Assembly (NCBI RefSeq): GCF_000023205.1
Contig: NC_012803.1
Location: 120,001 to 152,000 of the forward strand
DNA from: Micrococcus luteus NCTC 2665
GTDB taxonomy: Bacteria > Actinomycetota > Actinomycetes > Actinomycetales > Micrococcaceae
Length of the DNA stretch: 32,000 nucleotides
Direction of reading: 5' to 3'
Both the position numbers and the translations under genes were made by a program. The notes beneath the pieces are model-generated. The model saw only the letters and a program-made list of their open reading frames with translations, was not told the DNA's origin and ran no database searches. How positions within the stretch are numbered: position 1 is the first letter of the stretch; every line of letters starts with the position of its first letter. Positions 1-15,403 of the stretch are shown here, piece after piece.

Positions 1-901
1 CGATCCGGCGGGCGTCGACGGCGCCCCCGGCCCGGGCGGTCTCCACGGTGCGGCGCAGGTCCGGCAGCACCCGGCCGGGCAGACCCTCGGGGGAGAGCAG
101 CACGTCGTAGAGCAGGGCGGCGTCCTCGACCGTGTGGGCCAGCGGGCCCGACACCGTGAGGTTGCGGACCGTGTCCGCGTGCTCGTCCATCGGCAGCTCC
201 CCGCGGCCGGGCTTGAGGCCCACGAGCCCGCACGCGGCGGCGGGGATGCGGATGGACCCGCCCCCGTCCGAGCCCGGGGCGAACGGCAGGATCCCCGCGG
301 CGACGGCGGCCGCGGCCCCGCCCGAGGAGCCACCCGCGGTGCGGGCGGGGTCCAGGGGGTTGCGGGCCGGCGCCGTGACGAGGTTCTCCGAGTAGGAGTC
401 CAGGCCGAACTCGGGCACGGTCGTCTTGCCGAGGGTGACCGTGCCGGCCGCGCGCAGGCGGAGCGCGAGCGGGTCGTCCTGCGCGGCCGGCGGCGCATCG
501 GCCAGCAGGGCGGAGCCGAACCGCGTGGGCATCCCGCGCACGTCGATCAGGTCCTTGTACGCCAGCGGAAGGCCGTGCAGGGAGGCGGGGGCGCCGTCGT
601 CGTCCGGGGCGGGGGAGGTGTGCGGACCGGGCACGGCCCGGGGTGCGACGCGCGGGTGGGCCGCGTCCAGCTCGGCCGCACGGGTCCGGGCGCCCTCGGC
701 GTCGAGGAGGGCGAACGCGCCGAGGTCCGCGTGGGCCTGGGCCGCGGCGAGGGCCGCCTCCGTGACCTCCCGGGCGCTCAGCGCCCCGGCGGCGAGGTCC
801 TCCCGCAGGCGCACGGCCGAGCGGTCCAGGAGCCGGGCCGGGCCGGGGGCGGAGGGGGTGCGGTCGTCGTCGGCGGCGGGTGCGGCGTCGGAGGTCTGCA
901 T
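1..901 (-). CDS. amidase (amidase-signature family), N-terminal about 300 aa; the 3' end runs off the window start
   Basis: Absent from the ORF track because it has no stop in the window. My minus-strand translation from ATG (complement of 899-901) reads MQTSDAAPAADDD...LPLAYKDLIDVRGMPTRFGS...GKTTVPEFGLDSYSEN...GGSSGGAAAAVAAGILPFAPGSDGGGSIRIPAAACGLVGLKPGRG. It carries the AS-family GGSSGG and GSDxGGSIRxPA motifs and has high GC3. Confidence 0.85.
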   Translation of the reverse strand, partial: MQTSDAAPAADDDRTPSAPGPARLLDRSAVRLREDLAAGALSAREVTEAALAAAQAHADLGAFALLDAEGARTRAAELDAAHPRVAPRAVPGPHTSPAPDDDGAPASLHGLPLAYKDLIDVRGMPTRFGSALLADAPPAAQDDPLALRLRAAGTVTLGKTTVPEFGLDSYSENLVTAPARNPLDPARTAGGSSGGAAAAVAAGILPFAPGSDGGGSIRIPAAACGLVGLKPGRGELPMDEHADTVRNLTVSGPLAHTVEDAALLYDVLLSPEGLPGRVLPDLRRTVETARAGGAVDARRI

Positions 902-3697: not shown

Positions 3698-4981
3698 GTG
3701 ATCGACGTCAAGGACCTCATCGAGCAGCCCGAGAAGTACCGCGCCTCCCAGGAGGCCCGCGGGGAGGACGCGTCCCTCGTGGACCGCGTGGTCGAGGCAG
3801 ACGCGGCCCGCCGCTCGTCCATCGCGGGCTTCGAGCAGCTGCGCGCGGAGCAGAAGGCCTTCGGCAAGCGTGTCGCCCAGGCGAAGGGCGAGGAGAAGCA
3901 GGCCCTGCTGGCCGAGGTGAAGGACCTGGCCGCGCGCGTGAAGGAGGCCGAGTCGGCCGCCGGCGCCGCCGAGGCCCGCCTCGCGGAGCTGCAGCGCGCC
4001 TTCCCGAACCTGATCGTCGACGGCGTCCCGGCCGGCGGCGAGGACGACTTCGTGGTCCTCAAGGAGGTCGGCACCCCGCGCGACTTCGCCGCCGAGGGCT
4101 TCGAGCCGCGCGACCACCTCGAGCTCGGCGAGCTGCTCGGGGCGATCGACATGGAGCGCGGCGCGAAGGTCTCCGGCGCCCGGTTCAGCTTCCTCACGGG
4201 CGTGGGCGCGCGTCTCGAGCTCGCCCTGATGCAGCTGGGCCTGGACCTGGCCCTGGAGAACGGCTTCGTGCCGGTCATCCCGCCCACCCTGGTGCGTCCG
4301 GAGACCATGCAGGGCACCGGCTTCGACGTCGAGCACGACGACGAGATCTACCGCCTCGAGCGCGACGACCTGTATCTGGTGGGCACCTCCGAGGTGGCCC
4401 TGGCCGGCTTCCACGCGGGCGAGATCATGGACGTGTCCGCCCCCGTCCGGTACGCGGGCTGGTCCACGTGCTACCGCCGCGAGGCGGGCTCGGCGGGCAA
4501 GGACACCCGCGGCATCATCCGCGTGCACCAGTTCAACAAGCTGGAGATGTTCATCTACGCCGCACAGGAGGACGCGGAGGCGGAGCACGCGCGCCTGCTG
4601 GCGTGGGAGGAGCGGATGCTGGGCGCGATCGAGGTGCCGTACCGCGTGATCGACATCGCCGCCGGCGACCTCGGCCTCTCCGCCGCCCGCAAGTTCGACT
4701 GCGAGGCCTGGGTCCCCACGCAGGGCACCTATCGCGAGCTGACGTCCACCTCGAACTGCACCACGTTCCAGGCTCGCCGTCTCAACATCCGCGAGCGGGT
4801 CCGCACGGAGGACGGCTCCAAGGGCGGGACCCGCATGGTGGCCACGCTCAACGGCACCCTGGCCACCACCCGCTGGATCGTGGCGATCCTGGAGAACCAC
4901 CAGAACGCGGACGGCTCGGTCACCGTGCCCGCCGCGCTGCGCCCCTACCTCGGCGGGATGGAGCGCTTCGAGCTGGTCTGA
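3698..4981 (+). CDS. serS: seryl-tRNA synthetase
   Basis: 427 aa. It has an N-terminal coiled-coil arm ([22 protein letters not shown]...) and the class II motif-2 region [27 protein letters not shown]. The start codon is GTG. Confidence 0.95.
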
Positions 4982-5096: not shown

Positions 5097-5906
5097 ATGA
5101 CGAAGAAGCTCGTGTGCCTGGACGTGGACGGAACGATCGTGGACCATGACGGCCATCTGCATGAGCCCGTGCGCGCGGCCGTGCGGGCCGTGCTGGACGC
5201 CGGGCATCACGTGGTCATCGCGACGGGCCGCTCCCGCGGGGCCACCCTGCCCGTGGCCCGCTCCCTGGGGATCGACGCCGGCTTCATGGTGTGCTCCAAC
5301 GGCGGGGTCACGCTGCGCCTGGACCCCGAGCTGGAGGAGGGCTACGAGGTCACGGACCTGCGCACCTTCGACCCGCGCTCGGTCCTGACCCAGCTGCGCC
5401 ACCGCCTGCCCAGCGCCAAGTACGCGCTCGAGCTGCCGGACGGCACCTTCCGCTCCACCGAGCGGTTCCAGGACACGTCCTTCGGCGTGGCCGCGGAGGG
5501 CGTCACGTTCGAGGAGCTGATGGACACCACGGCCGTGCGCCTCGTGGTGTTCTCCACGGACTCCTCCGCCGAGGAGTTCGGCCGCGCGGTGGAGGGCCTC
5601 GGCCTGTCCGGCGTGACCTACTCCGTGGGCTGGACGGCGTGGCTCGACGTCGCCGCGGCGGGCGTGACCAAGGCGTCCGGGCTCGAGGCGCTGCGCACCG
5701 TGCTGAAGGTGGCCCCCGAGGACACCGTGGCCGTGGGCGACGGCCGCAACGACATCGAGATGCTCCGCTGGGCCGGCCGCGGCGTGGCCATGGGCCAGGC
5801 CGTGGAGGAGGTGGTGGCCGCCGCGGACGAGGTCACCGGGCACGTGGACGAGCACGGGCTCGCCACGGTGCTGCGCTCGCTCCTCGAGGAGCCGGCCGCG
5901 GCCTGA
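5097..5906 (+). CDS. HAD-superfamily (Cof-type, subfamily IIB) phosphatase
   Basis: Contains the LDVDGTIVD (DxDGT) motif I and the GDGRNDIEML motif. I chose ATG 5097, preceded by GGGTGGGGG. The track ORF begins 30 nt upstream at 5067. Confidence 0.8.
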   Translation: MTKKLVCLDVDGTIVDHDGHLHEPVRAAVRAVLDAGHHVVIATGRSRGATLPVARSLGIDAGFMVCSNGGVTLRLDPELEEGYEVTDLRTFDPRSVLTQLRHRLPSAKYALELPDGTFRSTERFQDTSFGVAAEGVTFEELMDTTAVRLVVFSTDSSAEEFGRAVEGLGLSGVTYSVGWTAWLDVAAAGVTKASGLEALRTVLKVAPEDTVAVGDGRNDIEMLRWAGRGVAMGQAVEEVVAAADEVTGHVDEHGLATVLRSLLEEPAAA

Positions 5907-5933
5907 GCGGCGCGACCGGCCCGGGCCGCCGGG

Positions 5934-6563
5934 TCAGCCCCCCGCCAGCGTGAGCAGGCGTGCGGCGGCGGGGCGGCAGGCGTGCTCCTCGTTCCAGTAG
6001 GAGCGCTGCACCGCCTGCGAGACGGCCTGCGCCGTGATCCCGAGCGCGGCGGCCGCCGGCTTCTGCTGGCCGCGCACCCCGGGCACCAGCAGGTCCAGCA
6101 CCGCCCACTCGGCGTCGGTGCGGGACCACACGAGCTGCCCGACGAGCCGCAGCACGGCCTCGGCCTCAGCCGCCGCATCCTCGTCCCGGCCGCGCACGGC
6201 CAACGGGATCCGCGCGGTGGACACGGCCGCCGCCTCCACGGCCCGCCGCGCCGCCGCGAGACCGGGCCCGCCTGCGTCGTGCAGGTCCCCGGAGGCGGGC
6301 ACGCCCGCCGCACCGTCCGCGTGCGTCACCGTCCCGACGCCGACCCCCACGTTCCAGCGGCGCGGCCGCAGGGCGCGCAGCGCCACGTCCACGGCGACGT
6401 GCGGGTCCTCGACGGCGCCGATCAGCTCGTCGCCCACGGCGCGCTGGAACGGGAGCACGACGGCGTCGCCCAGCCCCGGCACGTCCTGGAGGGCGCGCAG
6501 GAACGCGTCCACGCGGTCGCCGGCGTCGAGGGTGTCCCGCTGGTTGATGGTGAGCACGAACAT
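5934..6563 (-). CDS. hypothetical protein, SatD-like (N-terminal GDE-containing domain plus C-terminal helix-turn-helix-like segment)
   Basis: 209-aa ORF with high GC3. It contains FQRAVGDELIGAV and a C-terminal LGITAQAVSQAVQRS HTH-like stretch. The family assignment is from memory of the SatD pattern and is not verified. Confidence 0.55.
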   Translation of the reverse strand: MFVLTINQRDTLDAGDRVDAFLRALQDVPGLGDAVVLPFQRAVGDELIGAVEDPHVAVDVALRALRPRRWNVGVGVGTVTHADGAAGVPASGDLHDAGGPGLAAARRAVEAAAVSTARIPLAVRGRDEDAAAEAEAVLRLVGQLVWSRTDAEWAVLDLLVPGVRGQQKPAAAALGITAQAVSQAVQRSYWNEEHACRPAAARLLTLAGG

Positions 6564-6589
6564 GGTCGTCGATTCTGCCAGCCCGCAGA

Positions 6590-6631
6590 CGACGCCGGCC
6601 GCCCACCCCGAGGGGTGAGCGGCCGGCGTCG
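6590..6631 (-). terminator. long GC hairpin downstream of ppa
   Basis: GACGCCGGCCGC (6591-6602) pairs with GCGGCCGGCGTC (6619-6630). An inner CACCCC/GGGGTG stem adds about 18-19 bp in total. It lies 22 nt past the ppa stop and has no U-tract. Confidence 0.5.
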
Positions 6632-6652
6632 CGCGCGTGGGCGGTGCGGGGG

Positions 6653-7240
6653 TCAGCGGCCCTGGGGCTCGTCCGTCTCCTCACCCTCCTCGGTGGCCGG
6701 CTGCGCCTCCTCGGTGTCCACCTGGCGGCCCTGGGGCTCGTCGGTCGGGGACTCCTCGCCCTGGGCGTCGAAGCGCTGGATGGAGGCATCGAGCTCGGCC
6801 TCGGCGGCCGGGCGGCCCTCCCAGCCCTCGGCCTTGACCCACTTGCCCGGCTCGAGGTCCTTGTAGCGGGTGAAGAAGTGCTCGATCTCCTGCTTGAGGG
6901 ACTCCTCCACGTGCTCGAGCTCGGTGATGTGGTCGTAGCGCTTGTCCGCCGGGACGCACAGCAGCTTGGCGTCGCCGCCGCCGTCGTCGGTCATGTTGAA
7001 CACGCCGACCGGGCGGGCCTCGACGACGCAGCCCGGCACCAGGTCGAAGCCCGGCAGGTACACGAGGGCGTCCAGCGGGTCACCGTCCTCGCCGAGGGTG
7101 TTCTCGAAGTAGCCGTAGTGCGTGGGGTACTGCATGGAGGTGAAGAGCACGCGGTCCAGGCGCAGGCGGCCGGTCTCGTGGTCGAACTCGTACTTCACGC
7201 GGGAGCCCGCGGGGATCTCGATGGTGACGTCGTGCGCCAT
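6653..7240 (-). CDS. ppa: inorganic pyrophosphatase (family I) with an acidic C-terminal extension
   Basis: Contains [29 protein letters not shown] and [16 protein letters not shown] 7240 is preceded by GAAGGAGAG. The track ORF starts 15 nt upstream at 7255. Confidence 0.95.
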
Positions 7241-7337
7241 GACTCTCCTTCGCACAGAGGGTGGGGTGTCCGGGCGGCGCGGCGCCGACCGGCGGTGCTG
7301 CCGTCAGCCTACCGGGGGCGTCCGTCATGATGGACGC

Positions 7338-8771
7338 ATGGGACAGGTGGACACGGGGCGCGCTGGGCGTCGGGATCGACGCACGGAACGCCCCCGGAGC
7401 CGCTCGCTCCCCGCCGTCCTCCTGGCCGCACTCGCGGCCGTCCTGGTCGCCTGCGGGCCCGTGACCGCGCCGACGGCCCCGTCGAGCGCGTCCGCCTCGA
7501 CTTCGACCGCCGCGCCGACGTCGTCGTCCCCGTCCGCCGGCCCCACCGCGGCCGAGGTGGCGGCCGCCGTCGAGCCGGGGCTGGAGACGTCCCCGGGCAC
7601 GGTCTCCGCCGAGTTCCGCGACCTGGCCACCGGCGAGGTGCTGTACGCGCGGGACGCGGACGAGCCCGTGGCCCCCGCGTCCTCGCTCAAGGTGCTCGCC
7701 GCCGCGGCCATCGTCTCCGCCCTGGGTCCTGAGACGACCCTGCAGACCACCGTGGTGGCCCAGCCCACCGCGGACGGCGCGGCCACCGAGCTGGTGCTCG
7801 TGGGCGGCGGCGACGTGCTGCTGGGCACGGGCGCCTCGGACTCGACGCACGTCTCCGGCCGCGCGGGCCTGCGCACCCTCGCGGAGCAGACCGTGGCCGG
7901 GCTGGTCGAGGACGGCGTCACCGGGCAGGTGGTGGTCAGCGCGGACCTGCGGCTCTTCGCGGACCGCACGGCCCTGAACCCGCGCTGGACGTCGGACATC
8001 CCGGAGAGCGGCAACATCGCGCCGGTGCAGCCGTTGGCCACCTACGGCGGCCGTGAGGCCCCCGGCACCGGGGAGGACCGCATCGAGGACCCGGCGCAGT
8101 TCGCCGCGCTCACCTTCCAGGCCGCGCTCGACGACGCGGTGGCCGCCTCCGGCGCCGACCTCGAGGTGGGTCTGCGGGACACGATCCCGGCCACCGAGGT
8201 GCCGCGCGCCACGGTCCTCGCCGCCGCCCCCGTCGCGGGCGTGGAGTCCGCGCCCGTGGGGGAACAGGTCGCGTACCTGCTGGCCCACTCGGAAAACCAG
8301 GTGGTCGAGGCCCTGGCCCACACGGCCGCGCCCGCCGCCGACCTGCCCGCCACCCACGAGGGCGCCACGCAGCTGCTGACGGCCACCGCCGAGGACCTCG
8401 GCGTGGACACCGCCGGGATGGCGCTCGTGGACTCCTCCGGACTCTCCCCGGACAACCGGGTCAGCGCGGGCCAGCTGGCCGGCGTCGTGGCCGGGGTGGC
8501 CCGCACGCCCGCCCTGGGCGCCGTGCTGGAGGGCCTGCCGCGGCCCGGCGAGGACTCCACCGTGGGCGACCGGTTCCCGGCTGCCCCCGCGCGGCAGGCC
8601 GTGGCCGCGAAGACCGGCACGCTCGACCAGACGGTCTCCCTCACCGGCACCGTCACCACGACGTCCGGGCGGGTCCTCGCGTTCAGCATCATCTGCTCGG
8701 ATCTGCAGTGGAAGCTGGAGCCCGCGCGCGCGGCGGTCGACGAGGCCGTCAGCGCCGTCGCCGGGCTCTGA
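7338..8771 (+). CDS. dacB: D-alanyl-D-alanine carboxypeptidase/endopeptidase, PBP4 (S13) family, probable lipoprotein
   Basis: Carries the SxxK (SSLK), SxN (SENQ) and KTG (KTGT) motifs in the expected order. The signal peptide has a lipobox (LAAVLVAC). ATG 7338 was chosen; the upstream 72 codons of the track ORF overlap ppa. Confidence 0.85.
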   Translation: MGQVDTGRAGRRDRRTERPRSRSLPAVLLAALAAVLVACGPVTAPTAPSSASASTSTAAPTSSSPSAGPTAAEVAAAVEPGLETSPGTVSAEFRDLATGEVLYARDADEPVAPASSLKVLAAAAIVSALGPETTLQTTVVAQPTADGAATELVLVGGGDVLLGTGASDSTHVSGRAGLRTLAEQTVAGLVEDGVTGQVVVSADLRLFADRTALNPRWTSDIPESGNIAPVQPLATYGGREAPGTGEDRIEDPAQFAALTFQAALDDAVAASGADLEVGLRDTIPATEVPRATVLAAAPVAGVESAPVGEQVAYLLAHSENQVVEALAHTAAPAADLPATHEGATQLLTATAEDLGVDTAGMALVDSSGLSPDNRVSAGQLAGVVAGVARTPALGAVLEGLPRPGEDSTVGDRFPAAPARQAVAAKTGTLDQTVSLTGTVTTTSGRVLAFSIICSDLQWKLEPARAAVDEAVSAVAGL

Positions 8772-8796: not shown

Positions 8797-10038
8797 ATGG
8801 AGCCCATGAGCGACGACCACGCGACCGACCGCCCCCGCGCCGCGGCGGACGCCGAGCCGGGCGGCCTCGCCGAGCCGGGCCCCGCCGTCGCCCACCCGGT
8901 GGACTGGGCCTTCGCAGCACGGACCGCACGGTCCCTCGCCGGCGCCGGCCCCCGGTTCACGCCGCGGGAGGCGACGCGCGAGGCGGAGGGCCTGCGTGCC
9001 GCCGCGGAGGCCGCCGTGCCGCACGTGCACCGCCTGACCGGGCTCGAGGCGGCACGGGACCTGCGCGACTCGCAGGTGCTCGTGGTGGACCGTCCCACCT
9101 GGTCGCGCGCCGCCACTCAGTCCTTCGCCACGCTGCTCGACCCCACGTTCGCGCATCTGCGGGACACCCGGCCCCGCGAGCACGCCGCCGCCACCACCCG
9201 CGTCACCCGGCACGCCACCGGCCTGGAGATGGGCGGGATCCTCGCGTGGATGTCCGGGAGGATCCTCGGCCAGTACGACCCGTTCATCGCGCTGCCCGGC
9301 CCCGGGGGGACGGCGGGCGGCCCCGCCGGCGGACGCCTGCTGCTCGTGGCCCCGAACGTGGCGCAGGTCCGCGCGGAGATCAACGTGGACCCGGCGGACT
9401 TCCGCCTCTGGGTGTGCCTGCACGAGCAGACCCACCGTGTGCAGTTCGCGGCCGCGCCCTGGCTGCGCGAGCACCTGCGGGCCGAGATCACGGCGCTCAC
9501 CGTCGGCCTGTTCGACAAGGCTGAGTCCCTGCCCGAGCGCCTGCGCTCCGCGCTCGCGGCGGCGAACCCGCTGGGTCGGGAGGCCGACGCCGGCCGGATC
9601 GGGACACGGGACGGACACGACGCGCAGGACGCGGCCCCGGCCCGGCCCGTGCCGGGCCTGCTCGGTGCGATCCAGGACGAGGAGGACCGGGAGCGCCTGT
9701 CCCGGCTGACGGCCGTGATGTCTCTGCTCGAGGGGCACGCGAACGTGGTGATGGACGGCGTCGACTCCTCCGTGGTGTCCTCCGTCAAGACCATCCGCCG
9801 CCGCTTCGACGAGCGCGGCGACCGTCGCTCGCCCCTGGACCGCATGCTCCGCCGTCTGCTGGGCATGGACGCCAAGATGGCCCAGTACCGCGACGGCCAG
9901 AGGTTCGTGGCCACCGCCGTGGCCGAGCTCGGCATGGCCGGGTTCAACGTGGTCTGGGACGCCCCCGAGCTGCTGCCGAGCGAGGCCGAGCTCCACGCCC
10001 CCGAGACGTGGGTGGCGCGCATCCGTGCCCAGGCCTGA
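8797..10038 (+). CDS. zinc-dependent metalloprotease (HExxH; DUF2342-like putative hydrolase)
   Basis: 413 aa containing CLHEQTHRVQF (HExxH). It occupies the conserved position between dacB and tilS seen in Actinomycetota. Confidence 0.75.
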   Translation: MEPMSDDHATDRPRAAADAEPGGLAEPGPAVAHPVDWAFAARTARSLAGAGPRFTPREATREAEGLRAAAEAAVPHVHRLTGLEAARDLRDSQVLVVDRPTWSRAATQSFATLLDPTFAHLRDTRPREHAAATTRVTRHATGLEMGGILAWMSGRILGQYDPFIALPGPGGTAGGPAGGRLLLVAPNVAQVRAEINVDPADFRLWVCLHEQTHRVQFAAAPWLREHLRAEITALTVGLFDKAESLPERLRSALAAANPLGREADAGRIGTRDGHDAQDAAPARPVPGLLGAIQDEEDRERLSRLTAVMSLLEGHANVVMDGVDSSVVSSVKTIRRRFDERGDRRSPLDRMLRRLLGMDAKMAQYRDGQRFVATAVAELGMAGFNVVWDAPELLPSEAELHAPETWVARIRAQA

Positions 10039-11209
10039 GGTGCGGGACCCGGGGCCGACGCCGGCGGGCGGGGCCGGCGGCCTGCCCGCGGTCGGCGCAT
10101 GGCCGCCGCGCACCCGCTGGCCCGAGCCCCTGCACCGGGCCGTCGCGGCGGTGCGGGAGGCCCTGGCGGGCGACGGGGCCTGCCGCGCGGATGCCGTGTC
10201 GGGCCGGGCGGGGAACCACTCCCGCGGCCTCGTCGCCCTCTCCGGCGGCGCCGACTCCCTCGCGCTCGCCTTGGCCTGCGCCGTCCTCGTGGGCACCCGG
10301 GAGGGCCGGCGACTCAACCCGATCGGCGCGGCCGTGGTGGACCACGGGCTGCAGTCGGGCAGCGACGCGGTGGCAGCGGCCGCCGCCGGCGTCGCCCGCA
10401 TCCTCGGTCTGACCCCGGTCACCGTGACGCGGGTCGAGGTGGCCCGCACCGGCGACGGCCCCGAGGCCAACGCCCGGCGTGCCCGCCGGGAGGCCCTCGC
10501 CGCCGCCGCCCGGGACGCCGTCCCGGGGGCGGGCGCCGCCGTCGTCCTCACCGCCCACACCGCCGACGACCAGGCCGAACAGGTCCTCCTCGGGCTCGCA
10601 CGCGGGTCCGGCACGCGGTCCCTCGCGGGGATCCCGGCGCGCGGGACGCTGCCGGGCGGGGCCGCCGTCGTCCGCCCCCTGCTGGGCCTGACCCGCGCGG
10701 ACACCGAGACGATCTGCCGCTGGGCCGGGCTGACCTGGTTCGAGGACCCGCACAACCGCGATCCCGCGCTGCTGCGCTCGCGGGTCCGCACCCGCGTGCT
10801 GCCCGCGCTCGAGGACCCCGACGCCGGCCTCGGCCCCGGCGTGCGGGCCGGGCTGGTGCGCACCGCGGCCATCGCGGCCGAGGACGCCGCGGCCCTCGAC
10901 GCATGGGCCGGCGACGAGTTCACCCGGCTGCGCGTCGACCCGCCCGCCCGGGACCCGCGCGTCGTCTCCCTGGACCTGGATGCCCTGGCCGCGCTGCCCG
11001 CCGCCGTGCGCCACCGCGTGATCGCGCGCGCCGCCCGCGCCGCGGGAGGGCAGGCCCCGCCCCGCGAACGGATCCTCGCGGTGGACACCCTCGTGACGGG
11101 CGCCCACGCGGGGGGCACGTCGGCCGGTCCGGTGGAGCTGCCCGGCGGGGTGGCCGCGCATCGGGCGTGTGCCAGACTGGACCTCATCCCCCGCCTGCCC
11201 GGTCCCTGA
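10025..11209 (+). CDS. tilS: tRNA(Ile)-lysidine synthetase
   Basis: Has the PP-loop VALSGGADSLALA, then TAHTADDQAEQVLL and WFEDPHN. The start is uncertain: GTG 10025 overlaps the upstream gene by 14 nt, and GTG 10040 is the alternative. Confidence 0.85.
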   Translation: MPRPEVRDPGPTPAGGAGGLPAVGAWPPRTRWPEPLHRAVAAVREALAGDGACRADAVSGRAGNHSRGLVALSGGADSLALALACAVLVGTREGRRLNPIGAAVVDHGLQSGSDAVAAAAAGVARILGLTPVTVTRVEVARTGDGPEANARRARREALAAAARDAVPGAGAAVVLTAHTADDQAEQVLLGLARGSGTRSLAGIPARGTLPGGAAVVRPLLGLTRADTETICRWAGLTWFEDPHNRDPALLRSRVRTRVLPALEDPDAGLGPGVRAGLVRTAAIAAEDAAALDAWAGDEFTRLRVDPPARDPRVVSLDLDALAALPAAVRHRVIARAARAAGGQAPPRERILAVDTLVTGAHAGGTSAGPVELPGGVAAHRACARLDLIPRLPGP

Positions 11210-11258: not shown

Positions 11259-11810
11259 ATGGACGCACAGGATGTTCAGAACGACCTCACCCACGTCCTC
11301 ATGTCCCGCGAGGACGTGCAGGACACGATCACGGACCTGGCCCGCCAGATCGACCGCGACTACGCGGACAAGGACCTGCTCATCGTCGCCGTGCTCAAGG
11401 GCGCCGTGATGGTGGTCGCCGACCTCACCCGCGCCCTGCACTCCCACGTGGAGCTGGACTTCATGGCCGTCTCCTCCTACGGCTCCGGCACCAAGTCCTC
11501 CGGCGTGGTGCGCATCCTCAAGGACCTCGACGCGGACCTCACGGGCCGGCACGTCCTGATCGTCGAGGACATCATCGACTCTGGCCTCACCCTGTCCTGG
11601 CTCAAGGCCAACCTGGAGTCCCGCGGCCCGGCCTCGGTCGAGATCTGCACCCTGCTGCGCAAGCCGGAGGCCATGAAGGTGGACATCGACGTGAAGTACG
11701 TCGGGCGGGACATCCCCAACGAGTTCGTGGTGGGCTACGGCCTGGACTATGCGGAGAAGTACCGCAACCTGGACTTCGTGGGCACGCTCGCCCCGCACGT
11801 GTACAGCTGA
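11259..11810 (+). CDS. hpt: hypoxanthine phosphoribosyltransferase
   Basis: Has the PRPP-binding loop VLIVEDIIDSGLTL, LLIVAVLKGAVMVVADL and FVVGYGLDY. ATG 11259 is preceded by AGGAG. Confidence 0.95.
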   Translation: MDAQDVQNDLTHVLMSREDVQDTITDLARQIDRDYADKDLLIVAVLKGAVMVVADLTRALHSHVELDFMAVSSYGSGTKSSGVVRILKDLDADLTGRHVLIVEDIIDSGLTLSWLKANLESRGPASVEICTLLRKPEAMKVDIDVKYVGRDIPNEFVVGYGLDYAEKYRNLDFVGTLAPHVYS

Positions 11811-11840
11811 CCGCGGGCCCGGCCCGGCGGGGCCCGGCGG

Positions 11841-11920
11841 GGCCGACCTGTCACGTGTGGTGTCGCTCCGATGCCGGATCTCCGCCCCATTCCGACTCCC
11901 TGCGTGACAGGTCGCCGGCG
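11841..11920. repeat. inverted repeat enclosing the DUF559 stop codon; left copy of a flanking direct repeat
   Basis: CGACCTGTCACG (11844-11855) and CGTGACAGGTCG (11903-11914) form a perfect 12-bp inverted repeat with a 47-nt spacer. The stop codon (complement of 11851-11853) lies inside the left arm. Confidence 0.7.
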
Positions 11921-12918
11921 CTCTCGAGGTGACGGCGCACCTCCACGATCACGCGCGTGAATCCTCGGCGAGCGTCGGAGGAGGACACGGTGATGTTCCG
12001 GTAGGCCCGTCGCTCGAAGGCCGCGTTGCGCTGCACGTCGCGGTCGATCTGACGATCCGCGCCGTGGTGGCCGCCGTCGTAGTGCAGGGCCACTCTCGCC
12101 TGCCGATAGCCCAGGTCCGCCGTCGCGGGGTGGTGCAGGGAGAACTCCGGGTCCCAGACCTCGAGCTGCAGGTCGGGCTCGGGGAGCCCGGCGGCCGTCA
12201 GCGCGAGCCGGAGCCGCGTCTCCTTCGGCGAGTGCGCCCCCACCCGGACCAGCGTGGCGGCGGTGCGGAGCCGTCGTCGCCGGTTGTGCGCGGACGGGCT
12301 CGCCTCGGCCGCCTGGGCCAGGGCCGCCCGGGTCCGCTCGGCGGCGCCCGGACCGCCGGACAGCTGCGCCCGGCGGACGAGATGGTCGCCGAGGATGACG
12401 AGCTCGTCGTCGTCGAGCAGGGCCGCGAGGTCGACCCAGAGACGGGGCGGGGCGGTGACGTACCAGGCCAGCGCGCCGAGCCGCACGCGCTCCACGTCCG
12501 CGGGCGGGAGCGCTGTCCGGTGGGAGGTGACGCCGGGGAGGGCGAGGCGGCCACGGTCACGCGGGCGGCTCACGTGGACGCCGTCCCCCGCGTCCAGTCG
12601 CTCCGGCAGCCAGATCTCCCGGGCGCGGGCCGCGGTCTGGTGCGACACCACCGTGGTGGCGCGGTGCCGGGCGAGCCGCAGCAGCAGCTCGCATTGGGTG
12701 GCCGAGAGCGGGGTGCTCCACCGGTAGGGGGAGGAGCCGGCCACGGGGCGCTCGACGGCGGCCGGGGCGGCCTCCCGCCGGCGGTAGAGGCCGCGGGAAG
12801 CGGGGCGTTCGACGTCGGAGCGACGCAGCCGGTTGCGGTCGAGGCCGGCGGCCCTCGCCTGCGCGGCGGTGAAGGGGCCGTCCAGCAAGGCCACGGGAAG
12901 CGGGGCGGGGCGACGCAT
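11851..12918 (-). CDS. DUF559 (Vsr/restriction-endonuclease-like fold) protein with an AbiEi-like N-terminal region
   Basis: The C-terminus reads SPKETRLRLALTAAGLPEPDLQLEVWD...ADLGYRQARVALHYDGGHH...DRDVQRNAAFERRAYRNITVSSSD, which is the canonical DUF559 pattern. The N-terminus LLDGPFTAAQARAAGL...SRGLYRR is typical of this family. I chose ATG 12918 because the 60 upstream codons of the track ORF are Pro/Arg low-complexity. Confidence 0.75.
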   Translation of the reverse strand: MRRPAPLPVALLDGPFTAAQARAAGLDRNRLRRSDVERPASRGLYRRREAAPAAVERPVAGSSPYRWSTPLSATQCELLLRLARHRATTVVSHQTAARAREIWLPERLDAGDGVHVSRPRDRGRLALPGVTSHRTALPPADVERVRLGALAWYVTAPPRLWVDLAALLDDDELVILGDHLVRRAQLSGGPGAAERTRAALAQAAEASPSAHNRRRRLRTAATLVRVGAHSPKETRLRLALTAAGLPEPDLQLEVWDPEFSLHHPATADLGYRQARVALHYDGGHHGADRQIDRDVQRNAAFERRAYRNITVSSSDARRGFTRVIVEVRRHLESAGDLSRRESEWGGDPASERHHT

Positions 12919-13030
12919 GGTGCCAGCCTGGCGCGGTGGGGCGGGCGGCGTCCTGGGCCGCCGTGGCTCTGGGGAGGAGTGCGGGTGCGCGGGGGTCTGT
13001 GCAGGCGGGGACGCAGGGGCGCGAACGCAG

Positions 13031-13101
13031 CGCCGGCGACCTGTCATGCAAGCGGTCGCTCTGAGGTGCGATCCACGCGCCATTCCGACCCCTTGCATTC
13101 C
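13031..13101 (-). pseudogene. relic copy of the DUF559 3' end (C-terminal codons, stop and post-stop sequence)
   Basis: Ungapped alignment at an offset of 1193 nt to 11844-11904 gives 44/61 identical by my hand count. The minus-strand reading ECKGSEWRVDRTSERPLA* compares with the gene end SRRESEWGGDPASERHHT*, with the stop at the same aligned position followed by CAGGTCG. 13031-13046 is an exact inverted copy of 11905-11920. Confidence 0.5.
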
Positions 13102-13312
13102 CGGGGGACGTCAGGACGGTGCTGGCCGACGTCGTCGCCGGCTGACCGCCCGCGCCCTGTCCACCTGACGCGAACAGTCAGCGGACACCCGGGCCGGGCC
13201 GGTACCGTGGGGGCTTGACCCGGGCGCGACGTCGGCCCTGCGCCGGCCCCGGCCGCACGGCGGCCGCCCCGGGCAGCCCGGCCCCCGCGGCAGACCAGGA
13301 GACACTCGGACC

Positions 13313-15403
13313 GTGAAGAAGCTGTTCAACAAGCCCTACGTCTGGATCCTGCTGGGCCTGCTGGTCCTCGCGGTCGCGATCCCGCTGACCACGTCACAGA
13401 GCGGCCGCACCATGGTGGACACCAACGTGGGCATGGCCCTGCTGAAGGACGACAAGGCCGCGCAGGCCCGCGTGGTGGACGGGGACCAGCGCGTGGACCT
13501 CACCCTGCGTGAGCCGTACAAGCAGGACGACCGGGACCTCGGCAAGGAGGTCTACTTCTACTTCGCCGCCGCGCGCGCCACGGACGTGGTCACCGCGGTG
13601 GACGACTCGGCCCTGGACGGCTACACGGACGAGCCGGTGCGGAGCAACTGGTTCCTCTCGCTGCTCGGCTTCATGGTCCCGTTCCTGCTCATCGCACTGC
13701 TGTTCTGGTTCCTGATGTCCCGCATGCAGGGCGGCGGCGGCAAGGTCATGCAGTTCGGCAAGTCCCGCGCCAAGCTGATCAACAAGGACAACCCGGACGT
13801 GCTGTTCAAGGACGTCGCGGGCGCGGACGAGGCCGTGGAGGAGCTCCAGGAGATCAAGGAGTTCCTCACCGTGCCGGACCGCTTCCGCGCTGTGGGCGCC
13901 AAGATCCCCAAGGGCGTGCTGCTCTACGGCCCGCCCGGCACGGGCAAGACCCTCTTGGCCAAGGCCGTGGCCGGTGAGGCCGGCGTGCCGTTCTACTCGA
14001 TCTCCGGCTCCGACTTCGTGGAGATGTTCGTGGGCGTCGGCGCCTCGCGCGTGCGCGACCTCTTCGAGCAGGCCAAGTCCAACGCCCCCGCCATCATCTT
14101 CGTGGACGAGATCGACGCCGTCGGCCGGCACCGCGGCGCAGGCATCGGCGGCGGCAACGACGAGCGCGAGCAGACCCTGAACCAGATGCTCGTGGAGATG
14201 GACGGCTTCGACGCCTCCACGAACGTCATCATGATCGCCGCGACCAACCGCCCGGACGTCCTGGACCCGGCGCTGCTGCGCCCGGGCCGCTTCGACCGCC
14301 AGATCCCCGTGGACGCCCCGGACCTCGAGGGCCGCGCCAAGATCCTCGAGGTGCACGCGCAGGGCAAGCCGATCGCCCTGGACGTGGACCTGCGCTCCCT
14401 GGCCAAGCGCACCCCCGGCTACACGGGTGCGGACCTGGCCAACGTGATCAACGAGGCCGCGCTGCTCACGGCGCGCTCGAACAACAACGTGATCGACAAC
14501 CACGCCCTGGACGAGGCCGTGGACCGCGTGATGGCCGGCCCGCAGAAGCGCACCCGCCTGATGAACGAGCACGAGCGCAAGGTCACCGCCTACCACGAGG
14601 GCGGCCACGCGCTCGTCGCGGCCGGGCTGCGCAACTCCGCCCCGGTCACCAAGATCACGATCCTGCCCCGCGGCCGCGCCCTGGGCTACACGATGGTGGT
14701 CCCGGAGGACGACAAGTACTCCGTCACCCGCAACGAGCTCCTGGACCAGCTCGCGTACGCGATGGGCGGGCGCGTGGCGGAGGAGATCGTGTTCAAGGAC
14801 CCGTCCACGGGCGCCGCGAACGACATCCAGAAGGCCACGGACACGGCCCGCAAGATGGTCACCGAGTACGGCATGTCCGCCAAGGTGGGCGCCGTCAAGC
14901 TCGGCGGCGGCAGCTCCGAGCCCTTCATGGGCGGCGCCGCCGGCGGCTCCTCCCGCGAGTACTCCGAGGAGCTGGCGTACCTGGTGGACGCCGAGGTCCG
15001 CACCCTGCTGGACCAGGCCCATGCCGAGGCCCACTGGGTGCTCACGGAGAACCGGGACGTCCTGGACCGCCTGGCCTACGAGCTGCTGGAGAAGGAGACG
15101 CTCACCCAGGAGGCCATCGCCGCCATCTTCGCGGACGTGCGCAAGCGGCCCGAGCGCGGCGTGTGGCTGGCCTCGGACGACCGGCTCCCGCAGGACATCC
15201 CGCCGGTGCTCTCCCCCTCCGAGCGCCGCTCGCGCCACGACGGCGGGCAGCAGACCCCCGTCGGCGTCGAGGGCACCACGGTGCCGGTGCGTCCGGAGGG
15301 CGCGCCGCCGTCGTCGCTGGGCGGGGACGCGGCCGGCCCCGGCCTGCCGCCGCACGGCGGTCCGAGCAACACGCCGGGCCCCGGCGAGGGACCGACCTTT
15401 TGA
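13313..15403 (+). CDS. ftsH: ATP-dependent zinc metalloprotease FtsH
   Basis: Has Walker A GPPGTGKT, Walker [10 protein letters not shown], the SRH segment [19 protein letters not shown], the zinc site HEGGHAL and two N-terminal TM segments. The start is GTG, preceded by AGGAG. The C-terminal tail is Pro/Gly-rich. Confidence 0.97.

Follow-up and report, generated by a model that had tools for sequence, protein, structure and literature searches.

A nuclease gene bracketed by paired repeats in the hpt-ftsH junction of Micrococcus luteus

The genes hpt and ftsH of Micrococcus luteus NCTC 2665 are separated by 1,502 bp that hold a single gene on the opposite strand, which encodes an AbiEi-like module fused to a Vsr-type (DUF559) nuclease domain and is bracketed by two copies of a repeat. 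We describe here this nuclease cassette, the family to which it belongs, and a genome of the same species in which the cassette is missing and one repeat is left. The window is the whole stretch of 32,000 nucleotides that was analysed (RefSeq assembly GCF_000023205.1, contig NC_012803.1, positions 120,001 to 152,000 of the forward strand); its features are given in Table 1. From Pfam and NCBIfam matches the gene order is Peptidase_S13, Zincin_2, tilS, hpt, the opposite-strand open reading frame (ORF), ftsH and then the folate genes (folE), with 394 bp of non-coding DNA between the nuclease ORF and ftsH.

An earlier note on this DNA, made from the sequence alone, had described a single opposite-strand gene of AbiEi-like/DUF559 type inserted into a tilS-hpt-ftsH junction that is normally contiguous. 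Both the ORF and the contiguity were confirmed. A scan based on hpt, with one genome per species, gave 80 actinobacterial loci among the matches listed, no Micrococcus among them; ftsH lies no more than ~500 bp from hpt in 72 of these, and a homologue of the window protein was detectable in none. The Micrococcus context was drawn from exact-protein look-ups. Is the gene an insertion with repeat scars at its borders, as that note had proposed? Or is it a long-resident passenger, and what then are the repeats on either side of it?

Table 1. Features of the hpt-ftsH junction, in positions of the window
Feature	Position	Strand	Remarks
AbiEi-Vsr fusion gene, 355 aa	11851..12918	-	identical to M. 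luteus ACS29688.1 / UniProt C5C886
AbiEi-like module (winged helix and AbiEi C-domain)	residues ~1-215		
Vsr/EDxHD (DUF559) nuclease domain	residues ~225-335		
Downstream (hpt-side) bracket repeat	11837..11921		hairpin, 13-bp outer stem, 11844-11856 pairing with 11902-11914
Upstream (ftsH-side) bracket repeat	13030..13110		left arm CGACCTGTCATG (13037-13048) kept; outer right arm decayed
Variable cassette region (both repeat copies, gene, upstream region)	11817..13156		alignment to L090/L091 breaks at 11816 and 13157
CCTGCACAG motif	12997..13005	-	-87/-88 from the start codon
hpt (hypoxanthine phosphoribosyltransferase)	11259..11810	+	TIGR01203 E=1e-61, PF00156; left conserved border of the slot
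Conserved ftsH upstream region (promoter and 5' leader)	13157..13312	+	right border of the slot
ftsH	13313..15403	+	TIGR01241 E=4e-251
tilS	10025-11209		Pfam/NCBIfam

The fusion gene and its product

Taken mechanically, the ORF reaches 13098 (415 aa, with 60 extra codons at 12919-13098), and the additional ATG lies inside the upstream repeat; public M. luteus annotations give the gene 354-355 aa. The databases name the M. luteus protein 'hypothetical', 'DUF559 domain-containing' or 'AbiEi family antitoxin domain-containing'. In PADLOC, AbiEi models match residues 71-175 at E=6.3e-7 and residues 14-212 at 0.003-0.004. Among 60 aligned homologues, PF04480 is matched by 44 (E<=0.01) and PF18741 by 35, and the Pseudarthrobacter and Paenarthrobacter homologues, at ~36% identity, carry PF04480. 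An AlphaFold2 model of the window protein, built on 60 sequences, has a predicted local distance difference test (pLDDT) score of 90. Its top Foldseek match in the PDB is the catalytic domain of I-Bth0305I (3r3p_B; probability 1.00, template modelling score 0.69 on the target), followed by the AbiEi-like Rv2827c (1zel), PvuRts1I/AbaSI (4oq2, 4par) and the DUF559 protein NGO0050 (3hrl). A search of the PDB with the family profile gives E=5e-4 for 3hrl and E=0.026 for 3r3p, and in it H279, D281, H285 and D294 fall on the E-x-D...H...D pattern. The fusion of an AbiEi-like region to a DUF559-type Vsr-fold domain, as the earlier note had read it, is therefore supported by PADLOC, by the Pfam matches of the homologues and by the modelled structure.

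That note had also proposed a structural check of the catalytic residues. The check returned the Vsr-type fold, and in the profile alignments the window motif LHYDGGHH...Q..D..R is aligned with IVEADGGQH...D..R of the PDB homologues. D281, H285 and D294 align directly to 3hrl and 3r3p, their counterparts in Vsr being H64, H69 and D97, and E233 and D268, both invariant in the family, were matched to Vsr E25 and D51 by motif order only; the mapping is thus part direct alignment and part inference. All five residues are invariant or nearly so across 60 family sequences. The residue roles in Vsr and I-Bth0305I were taken from PMC3239194. At the place of the extra acidic residue of the EDxHD motif the window protein has H279, and the Arthrobacter clade has Q; since the same position is F62 in Vsr itself, the substitution need not inactivate the enzyme, and to judge from the alignments the fusion looks catalytically competent.

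In its C-terminal fold and its E...D...xD-G-x-x-H...D set the protein resembles the DUF559 (PF04480)/REase_MTES_1575 proteins, among them NGO0050 (3hrl), E. coli Vsr and Caulobacter VsrA. It differs from them in falling below the Pfam thresholds, in having H279 at the acidic position, in carrying a full AbiEi-like module and in having no methyltransferase partner. As a gene it is an ordinary representative of the DUF559/AbiEi-domain family, which is known and annotated but has not been characterised.

The N-terminal two thirds of the protein match AbiEi models, as in the type IV toxin-antitoxin system AbiE (AbiEi; M. tuberculosis Rv2827c, 1zel), and NCBI names close homologues 'AbiEi family antitoxin domain-containing protein'. 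Unlike AbiE, the window gene has no AbiEii (DUF1814) nucleotidyltransferase gene adjacent to it, its neighbours being hpt and ftsH with no other ORF that has a family match, and the nuclease is fused in cis. Because no AbiEii gene is adjacent, this is not an AbiE toxin-antitoxin pair. Annotators would accordingly be warned not to read an 'AbiEi antitoxin' label here as the sign of a toxin-antitoxin pair.

The Vsr fold brings up a housekeeping role, in which the product would be a Vsr-like repair nuclease, or a transcription factor with a dead nuclease domain, and the repeats beside the gene would be ordinary terminators whose likeness is maintained by gene conversion. PMC12907096 proposes the Caulobacter DUF559 protein VsrA as an enzyme of very short patch (VSP) repair, the window gene resides stably between essential genes, and the H or Q at the acidic position could be taken as the mark of a dead enzyme. 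However, the five residues kept make up the Vsr catalytic set, and the H/Q position is not required in Vsr. The gene is also dispensable in the species (see below) and absent at this slot from most actinobacteria among the matches listed, the family is extremely diversified and has paralogues, and a cytosine methyltransferase was not found nearby. The bracketing repeats described next are, in addition, specific to this family. We therefore regard this explanation as unlikely.

The flanking repeats and the family

Homology of the window with other Micrococcus-type loci stops at 11816, 6 nt past the hpt stop codon, shortly before the first repeat. The stop codon of the nuclease gene (11851-11853) sits in the left arm of the hpt-side hairpin, which is the only hairpin between the convergent hpt and nuclease genes and has a fold z of -2.4 in the window and -3.5 in strain L174. 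In the ftsH-side repeat an inner 7-bp stem persists (13046-13052 pairing with 13092-13098). The two copies, which stand in direct orientation and measure 70-90 nt, are 72% identical (11837-11903 against 13030-13096). Their local alignment score of 30 compares with 13.2 +/- 2.0 in 1,000 dinucleotide shuffles, none of which reaches 30, and no other 300-nt window of the 32 kb attains it. The repeat is not a coding duplication, since the downstream copy encodes the last 17 residues of the protein in a different frame. An Rfam scan of the slot at E<=1 gave no match. The M. luteus repeat pattern had 0 matches in metagenome contigs, a scan that is uninformative on dispersal.

Paired repeats of this kind are found across the family. 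We took 80 further loci from metagenomes, and 71 loci with both flanks could be tested for a bracket. In 41 of the 71 the upstream and downstream flanks are more similar than the 99th percentile of permuted pairs, compared with 1 of 109 neighbouring non-family genes in the same loci. Each homologue examined in the hpt-ftsH slot is flanked by a repeat pair of its own, whose sequence differs from lineage to lineage, and flanking repeats were found in 0 of 5 unrelated fillers of that slot (L018, L022, L015, L074 and L039). Where at least 3 kb of extra sequence was available, the two flanks match each other better than anything else in 36 of 50 loci.

The typical bracket is a locus-specific palindrome with a stem of 18-28 bp, of which one copy ends ~50-65 nt before the start codon, bordering a compact promoter, and the other begins 1-3 nt past the stop codon. 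Between the copies of one locus the stems are 84.5% identical and the loops 61.4% (Fisher p ~1e-13). In one clade compensatory changes occur in 14 of 28 stem pairs and 90% of cells pair, a level reached by 0 of 500 shuffles. This covariation argues that self-complementarity is maintained, and it points to a hairpin (in RNA or in single-stranded DNA), to a cruciform or to conversion between the arms. A bracket with covarying stems is thus a feature of the family as a whole, and what the earlier note had called repeat scars are paired hairpins that also serve as the substrate of a precise deletion, as set out below.

In place of palindromes, some clades carry tandem arrays on both sides in inverted orientation, with a period of 32 nt in Pseudarthrobacter and of 52 nt in L140 and L165. 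The slot of the Pseudarthrobacter homologue is a different one, between the genes for formate-tetrahydrofolate ligase and inositol-1-phosphate synthase. The arrays of 31-32-nt units at L007 (4845-4934 and 5981-6157) and L092 (9751-9929 and 11014-11089) are the only sizeable tandem arrays of their loci. In L138 three copies of one palindrome (2616-2667, 3831-3885 and 5693-5749) bracket two adjacent segments, one holding a LacI-type regulator and the other a DUF559 gene with an epimerase gene; the three-copy pattern is similar in L024.

The family is large and widely placed. Clustering at 50% identity gives no fewer than 2,675 clusters at E<=1e-30 and 16,083 at the looser E<=1e-10, and the family is mostly actinobacterial. 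About 60 loci fall into 36-40 different genomic slots, and related genomes carry the gene in the same slot. The commonest arrangement is one in which the gene follows a co-directional gene and converges with the gene beyond, that is, an insertion at a convergent 3' intergenic region. In several loci with such a co-directional upstream gene, the upstream palindrome starts ~4-12 nt from the stop codon of that gene, and in those loci there is no room for another hairpin between the downstream palindrome and the next gene. At most loci no hairpin other than the two palindrome copies is left between the cassette and the genes beside it, and from this geometry we infer that the bracket may be a duplicated terminator. 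Two family members on one 90-kb contig (L120 and L151 on Ga0268288_10059) have a different palindrome each; the earlier note had asked whether paralogues share one terminal repeat, and in this single case of two members on a contig they do not. Two further AbiEi_4/DUF559 genes lie in the hpt-ftsH slot of other genera, in Arthrobacter sp. ISL-28 (L025:6742-7815, minus strand) and in a Paenarthrobacter sp. (L024:7846-8823, minus strand). They are essentially unrelated to the window gene (BLASTP E 0.007 or weaker) and to each other, and both are flanked by repeats of their own; genes of this class seem to be drawn to the slot repeatedly.

A second shared element lies upstream of the gene. In 43 of 83 loci, L097, L121, L092 and L096 among them, the sense strand carries the 10-nt motif TGTGGATAAC (at most 2 mismatches, mostly exact) at positions -45 to -49 relative to the start codon, where ~0.02 occurrences would be expected per stretch searched. 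A reading of this site as a 21-bp dyad operator was dropped because only an asymmetric core, cCTGTGGATAAC, the consensus of 39 sequences, is strongly conserved. The complement of the -47 motif contains TTATCCACA, with the variant GTTGTCCACA and, in some loci, a TTGTCCACA form. TTATCCACA is the DnaA-box consensus of E. coli, and GTTGTCCACA corresponds to the actinobacterial form. L090 and L091 retain TGTGGAC at -47. In the window, L008, L001 and L089, the M. luteus-type loci, CCTGCACAG at -87/-88 takes the place of the TGTGGATAAC that other family members have at -47, and its distance from the start codon is the same in all four. A CAnAAT hexamer at -12 to -7 in family loci, read by eye from the sequences, suggests that the transcripts may be leaderless. 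Just outside the cassette, in the conserved region upstream of ftsH, the window has a DnaA-box-like sequence, CCTGTCCACCT (13157-13167, plus strand; TGTCCAC), which is also present in L090, L091 and the empty allele L179.

Do these features describe a mobile element of a new kind, active now or until recently? In such an element the Vsr-like nuclease would cut a terminator hairpin at its base and leave staggered ends, the cassette of promoter and ORF would be joined in, and fill-in would duplicate the hairpin as a target-site duplication of 60-90 nt, the M. luteus copy being old and immobilised. Its compactness, with one palindrome ~50-65 nt before the start and the other 1-3 nt past the stop, is that of an insertion sequence. 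The palindromes are locus-specific, differ between paralogues and are the only hairpins left beside the cassette; at least 36 different slots are occupied, and in different genera the hpt-ftsH slot holds three family members that are unrelated to one another. In PMC9881135, DUF559 genes are 14-fold enriched among predicted inversion targets, which fits the flanking inverted repeats of the family. At L173 outer 90-nt direct repeats that are 100% identical (34-123 and 1520-1609) lie outside an older, diverged palindrome pair, and may be either a recent, long duplication of the target or an artefact of assembly; L173 is a single metagenome contig of 1.6 kb, which is not circular since the ends outside the 90-nt repeat differ. 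Against mobility, no identical copies were seen at different sites, every close homologue checked shares its slot with relatives, and a nuclease of PD-(D/E)xK type is without strand-transfer chemistry. The palindromes are also conserved between orthologous loci and covary, which argues that they are under selection and are not decaying duplications. We consider this explanation possible but doubtful.

Held with the same degree of doubt is its wider form, in which actinobacterial AbiEi-Vsr (DUF559) genes would be both cargo and engine of an unrecognised one-gene element that enters 3' hairpins and duplicates them. Such an element could later leave by recombination between the copies, in most members expression would be linked to DnaA or to replication status through the DnaA-box-like site at -47, and the M. 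luteus insert would be old but excisable.

Known elements with a similar plan differ in their enzymes. In RAYT-REP systems a nuclease gene is bracketed by similar hairpins. These systems and IS200/IS605 share with our cassette a single nuclease gene in such a bracket, here resident in the lineage, but the window enzyme is not of the HUH/Y1 type, and its hairpins are locus-specific and undispersed in the 32 kb or in several hundred kb of related loci. Compared with insertion sequences, the cassette has no transposase domain (neither that domain nor a NUMOD motif was matched in the window protein by Pfam), it is a single copy in the 32 kb, and its close homologues are always in the same slot.

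Residence in the slot and precise loss

Homologues that share this slot, transcribed against the direction of hpt and ftsH, have 94% (L008), 59% (L001-L006), 58% (L089), 44% (L090) and 43% (L091) identity to the window protein. L001-L006 are metagenome assemblies, L002 from human skin, and L089 is a metagenome-assembled genome (MAG) of Micrococcus sp.; the slot assignment of L090 and L091 comes from contig ends that were read as the FtsH N-terminus and the Hpt C-terminus. An exact Hpt look-up showed ten M. luteus places, of which nine have the nuclease gene, and the GC content of the gene is unremarkable. The insert is therefore old, mostly inherited in place and long-resident in the Micrococcus lineage.

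The gene and its flanks do not tell quite the same history. Over the N-terminal 40 aa of FtsH, L090 and L091 are 80-82% identical to the window and L001 and L089 48-50%, yet for the nuclease protein the order is reversed, at 43-44% and 58-59%. This is mildly incongruent, and the difference at the DNA level is modest.

Two slots are empty. One is in a Citricoccus MAG, the closest genome in the hpt scan among the matches listed. The other is in M. luteus itself, in GCA_031920025.1 (L179), where ftsH begins 299 bp after hpt and ~1.2 kb of the cassette region is gone. The earlier note's expectation of empty sites at a gene outside the core was thus right; from these two empty slots the nuclease gene is accessory. 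The L179 flanks are 96-99% identical to those of occupied M. luteus strains, with 98-99% on the ftsH side, and window positions 13157-13312 are collinear with L179 and ~79% identical to L090 and L091. Between the flanks lies exactly one copy of the flanking repeat, and it is a hybrid. The hpt-side flank is followed by the left arm CGACCTGTCACGC, common to both copies, and then by a remainder with 89-94% identity to the ftsH-side copy type and 69-77% to the hpt-side copy. Such a product would be expected if recombination took place within the 14 nt common to both left arms in strains of the L174 type. The cassette has thus been lost precisely, by recombination between the repeat copies, leaving a solo hybrid repeat. 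Loss is more parsimonious than an ancestral empty site in L179 because the sister lineages hold diverged orthologues in the slot. No convincing alignment was obtained between the M. luteus and Citricoccus empty spacers, and the bracket repeat is not recognisable as native spacer, the empty sites of Arthrobacter relatives being too diverged (~79% DNA identity even in genes).

Excision that leaves one hybrid site is also known from integrons. Could the hairpins then be sites for an integron- or Xer-like host recombinase encoded elsewhere, with the nuclease only as cargo? As with attC cassettes, imperfect palindromes of 55-90 nt abut the stop codon, their structure is more conserved than their sequence, and the three palindrome copies at L138 and L024 bracket two adjacent segments. 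However, the bracket is specific to one gene family and not to varied cargo, the cassette stands singly in housekeeping spacers and not in an array, and the RYYYAAC/GTTRRRY (R'/R'') cores are absent from the window repeat, whose arms, read directly, are CGACCTGTCACG and CGTGACAGGTCG. There is no integrase or other recombinase among the genes identified within ~5 kb (Peptidase_S13, Zincin_2, tilS, hpt, ftsH and the folate genes), and since the crossover falls in 14 nt that are identical, the excision is accounted for equally well by homologous or slipped recombination. A site-specific system of this sort strikes us as scarcely probable.

The coexistence of occupied and empty alleles in M. luteus also recalls a homing endonuclease gene, whose product would cleave the empty hpt-ftsH allele, with repair copying the gene in. 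The best structural match is the EDxHD homing endonuclease I-Bth0305I (3r3p, PMC3239194), which likewise has an N-terminal DNA-binding region and a C-terminal Vsr-like nuclease; the highly conserved hpt and ftsH would serve as homology arms, and the gene is more diverged than its flanks predict. In contrast to that type, the window gene has no NUMOD, no intron or intein and no phage context, its N-terminus is AbiEi-like, it disrupts no target, and it has long been inherited in place. On either side of the gene the occupied allele has the empty allele's repeat intact, which would leave the occupied allele without immunity from cleavage. Since the insertion destroys no target, the homing-like insertion that was among the readings of the earlier note is not supported. 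The nine occupied places of ten and the diverged sister orthologues fit loss better than ongoing invasion, and family members occupy dozens of unrelated intergenic slots. We judge homing to be very unlikely.

A resident cassette for a putative nuclease

The cassette falls outside the AbiE pairs, homing genes, insertion sequences, RAYT-REP systems and integron cassettes with which it was compared. The explanation we favour, and to which we give an even chance, is a composite one, that of a resident, dispensable, hairpin-bracketed and probably autoregulated nuclease cassette, with the effector, insulation and insertion roles of its parts put forward conditionally. AbiEi proteins autoregulate by binding repeats in their promoter. 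By analogy with these antitoxins, the AbiEi module may bind DNA at its own promoter and regulate the gene. The hairpins would terminate transcription in both directions, insulating the cassette from hpt and ftsH, and may mark where it is gained and lost. The bracket itself could have been born by duplication of a local terminator hairpin at insertion.

The nuclease domain would serve as effector in a function of the conflict type, be it defence, abortive infection or addiction, and not in housekeeping repair. We base this on the number of clusters, the 36-40 slots, the paralogues with different palindromes and a gene more diverged than its flanks predict, and also on the use of Vsr-type nucleases as effectors in Hhe defence. 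Hhe and related defence systems share with the window protein a Vsr-type restriction-endonuclease fold as an effector domain in conflict systems. They differ from it in their helicase and HEPN domains, which the window protein lacks; only the distant member L025 matches the Hhe model, and weakly.

Several observations weigh against this composite explanation. The domain assignment of the window protein itself misses the Pfam thresholds, with AbiEi_4 weak at E=0.048 (residues 14-46), REase_MTES_1575 (PF18741) weak at E=0.051 (residues 272-323; 14 bits against a cut-off of 38 bits) and PF04480 without a match in the Pfam scan. The family promoter motif TGTGGATAAC is absent from the window, and neither a sigma-70-like promoter nor a canonical terminator was predicted in the slot. 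The ftsH-side hairpin is decayed (fold z ~0 to -0.9) and lies between divergent genes, with no obvious neighbour for a terminator. Concerted evolution by gene conversion could keep the copies alike without a function, and the empty site of L179 could in principle be ancestral. No toxin or methylase partner gene, phage context or defence-island context was seen around the window gene. The origin by terminator duplication is drawn from geometry, and no closely related genome pair shows a fresh insertion.

DUF559/AbiEi-nuclease genes are among the commonest uncharacterised genes of Actinobacteria, and are labelled only 'DUF559' or 'AbiEi antitoxin domain'. The present loci give this family a testable anatomy, with a paired hairpin bracket whose stems covary, a fixed promoter motif and a natural solo-repeat empty site in the tractable M. 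luteus. The bracket architecture together with an empty site within one species is new and testable; the bracket, the -47 motif and the M. luteus empty site are not described in the passages, titles and abstract openings consulted in the literature on DUF559 and I-Bth0305I. If insertion does give rise to the bracket, this would be a new mode of gene movement, in which an entire terminator is duplicated as the target site, and also a new use of the Vsr fold. Otherwise the family is still a clear case of an insulated, autoregulated nuclease tolerated between essential genes.

Two further observations concern the slot in other genomes. In M. luteus CP026366.1 (L182, ~5657-8159) the neighbouring genes are listed and ftsH is not in the gene calls, for which a frameshift or an index gap is possible. 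Elsewhere, unrelated genes fill the hpt-ftsH slot, namely LacI regulators (L018 and L022), AIM24 (L074), an unassigned ORF (L039) and a set of GntR, 2-hydroxycarboxylate transporter and TM2 genes (L015), so that the junction is a generally insertion-tolerant site.

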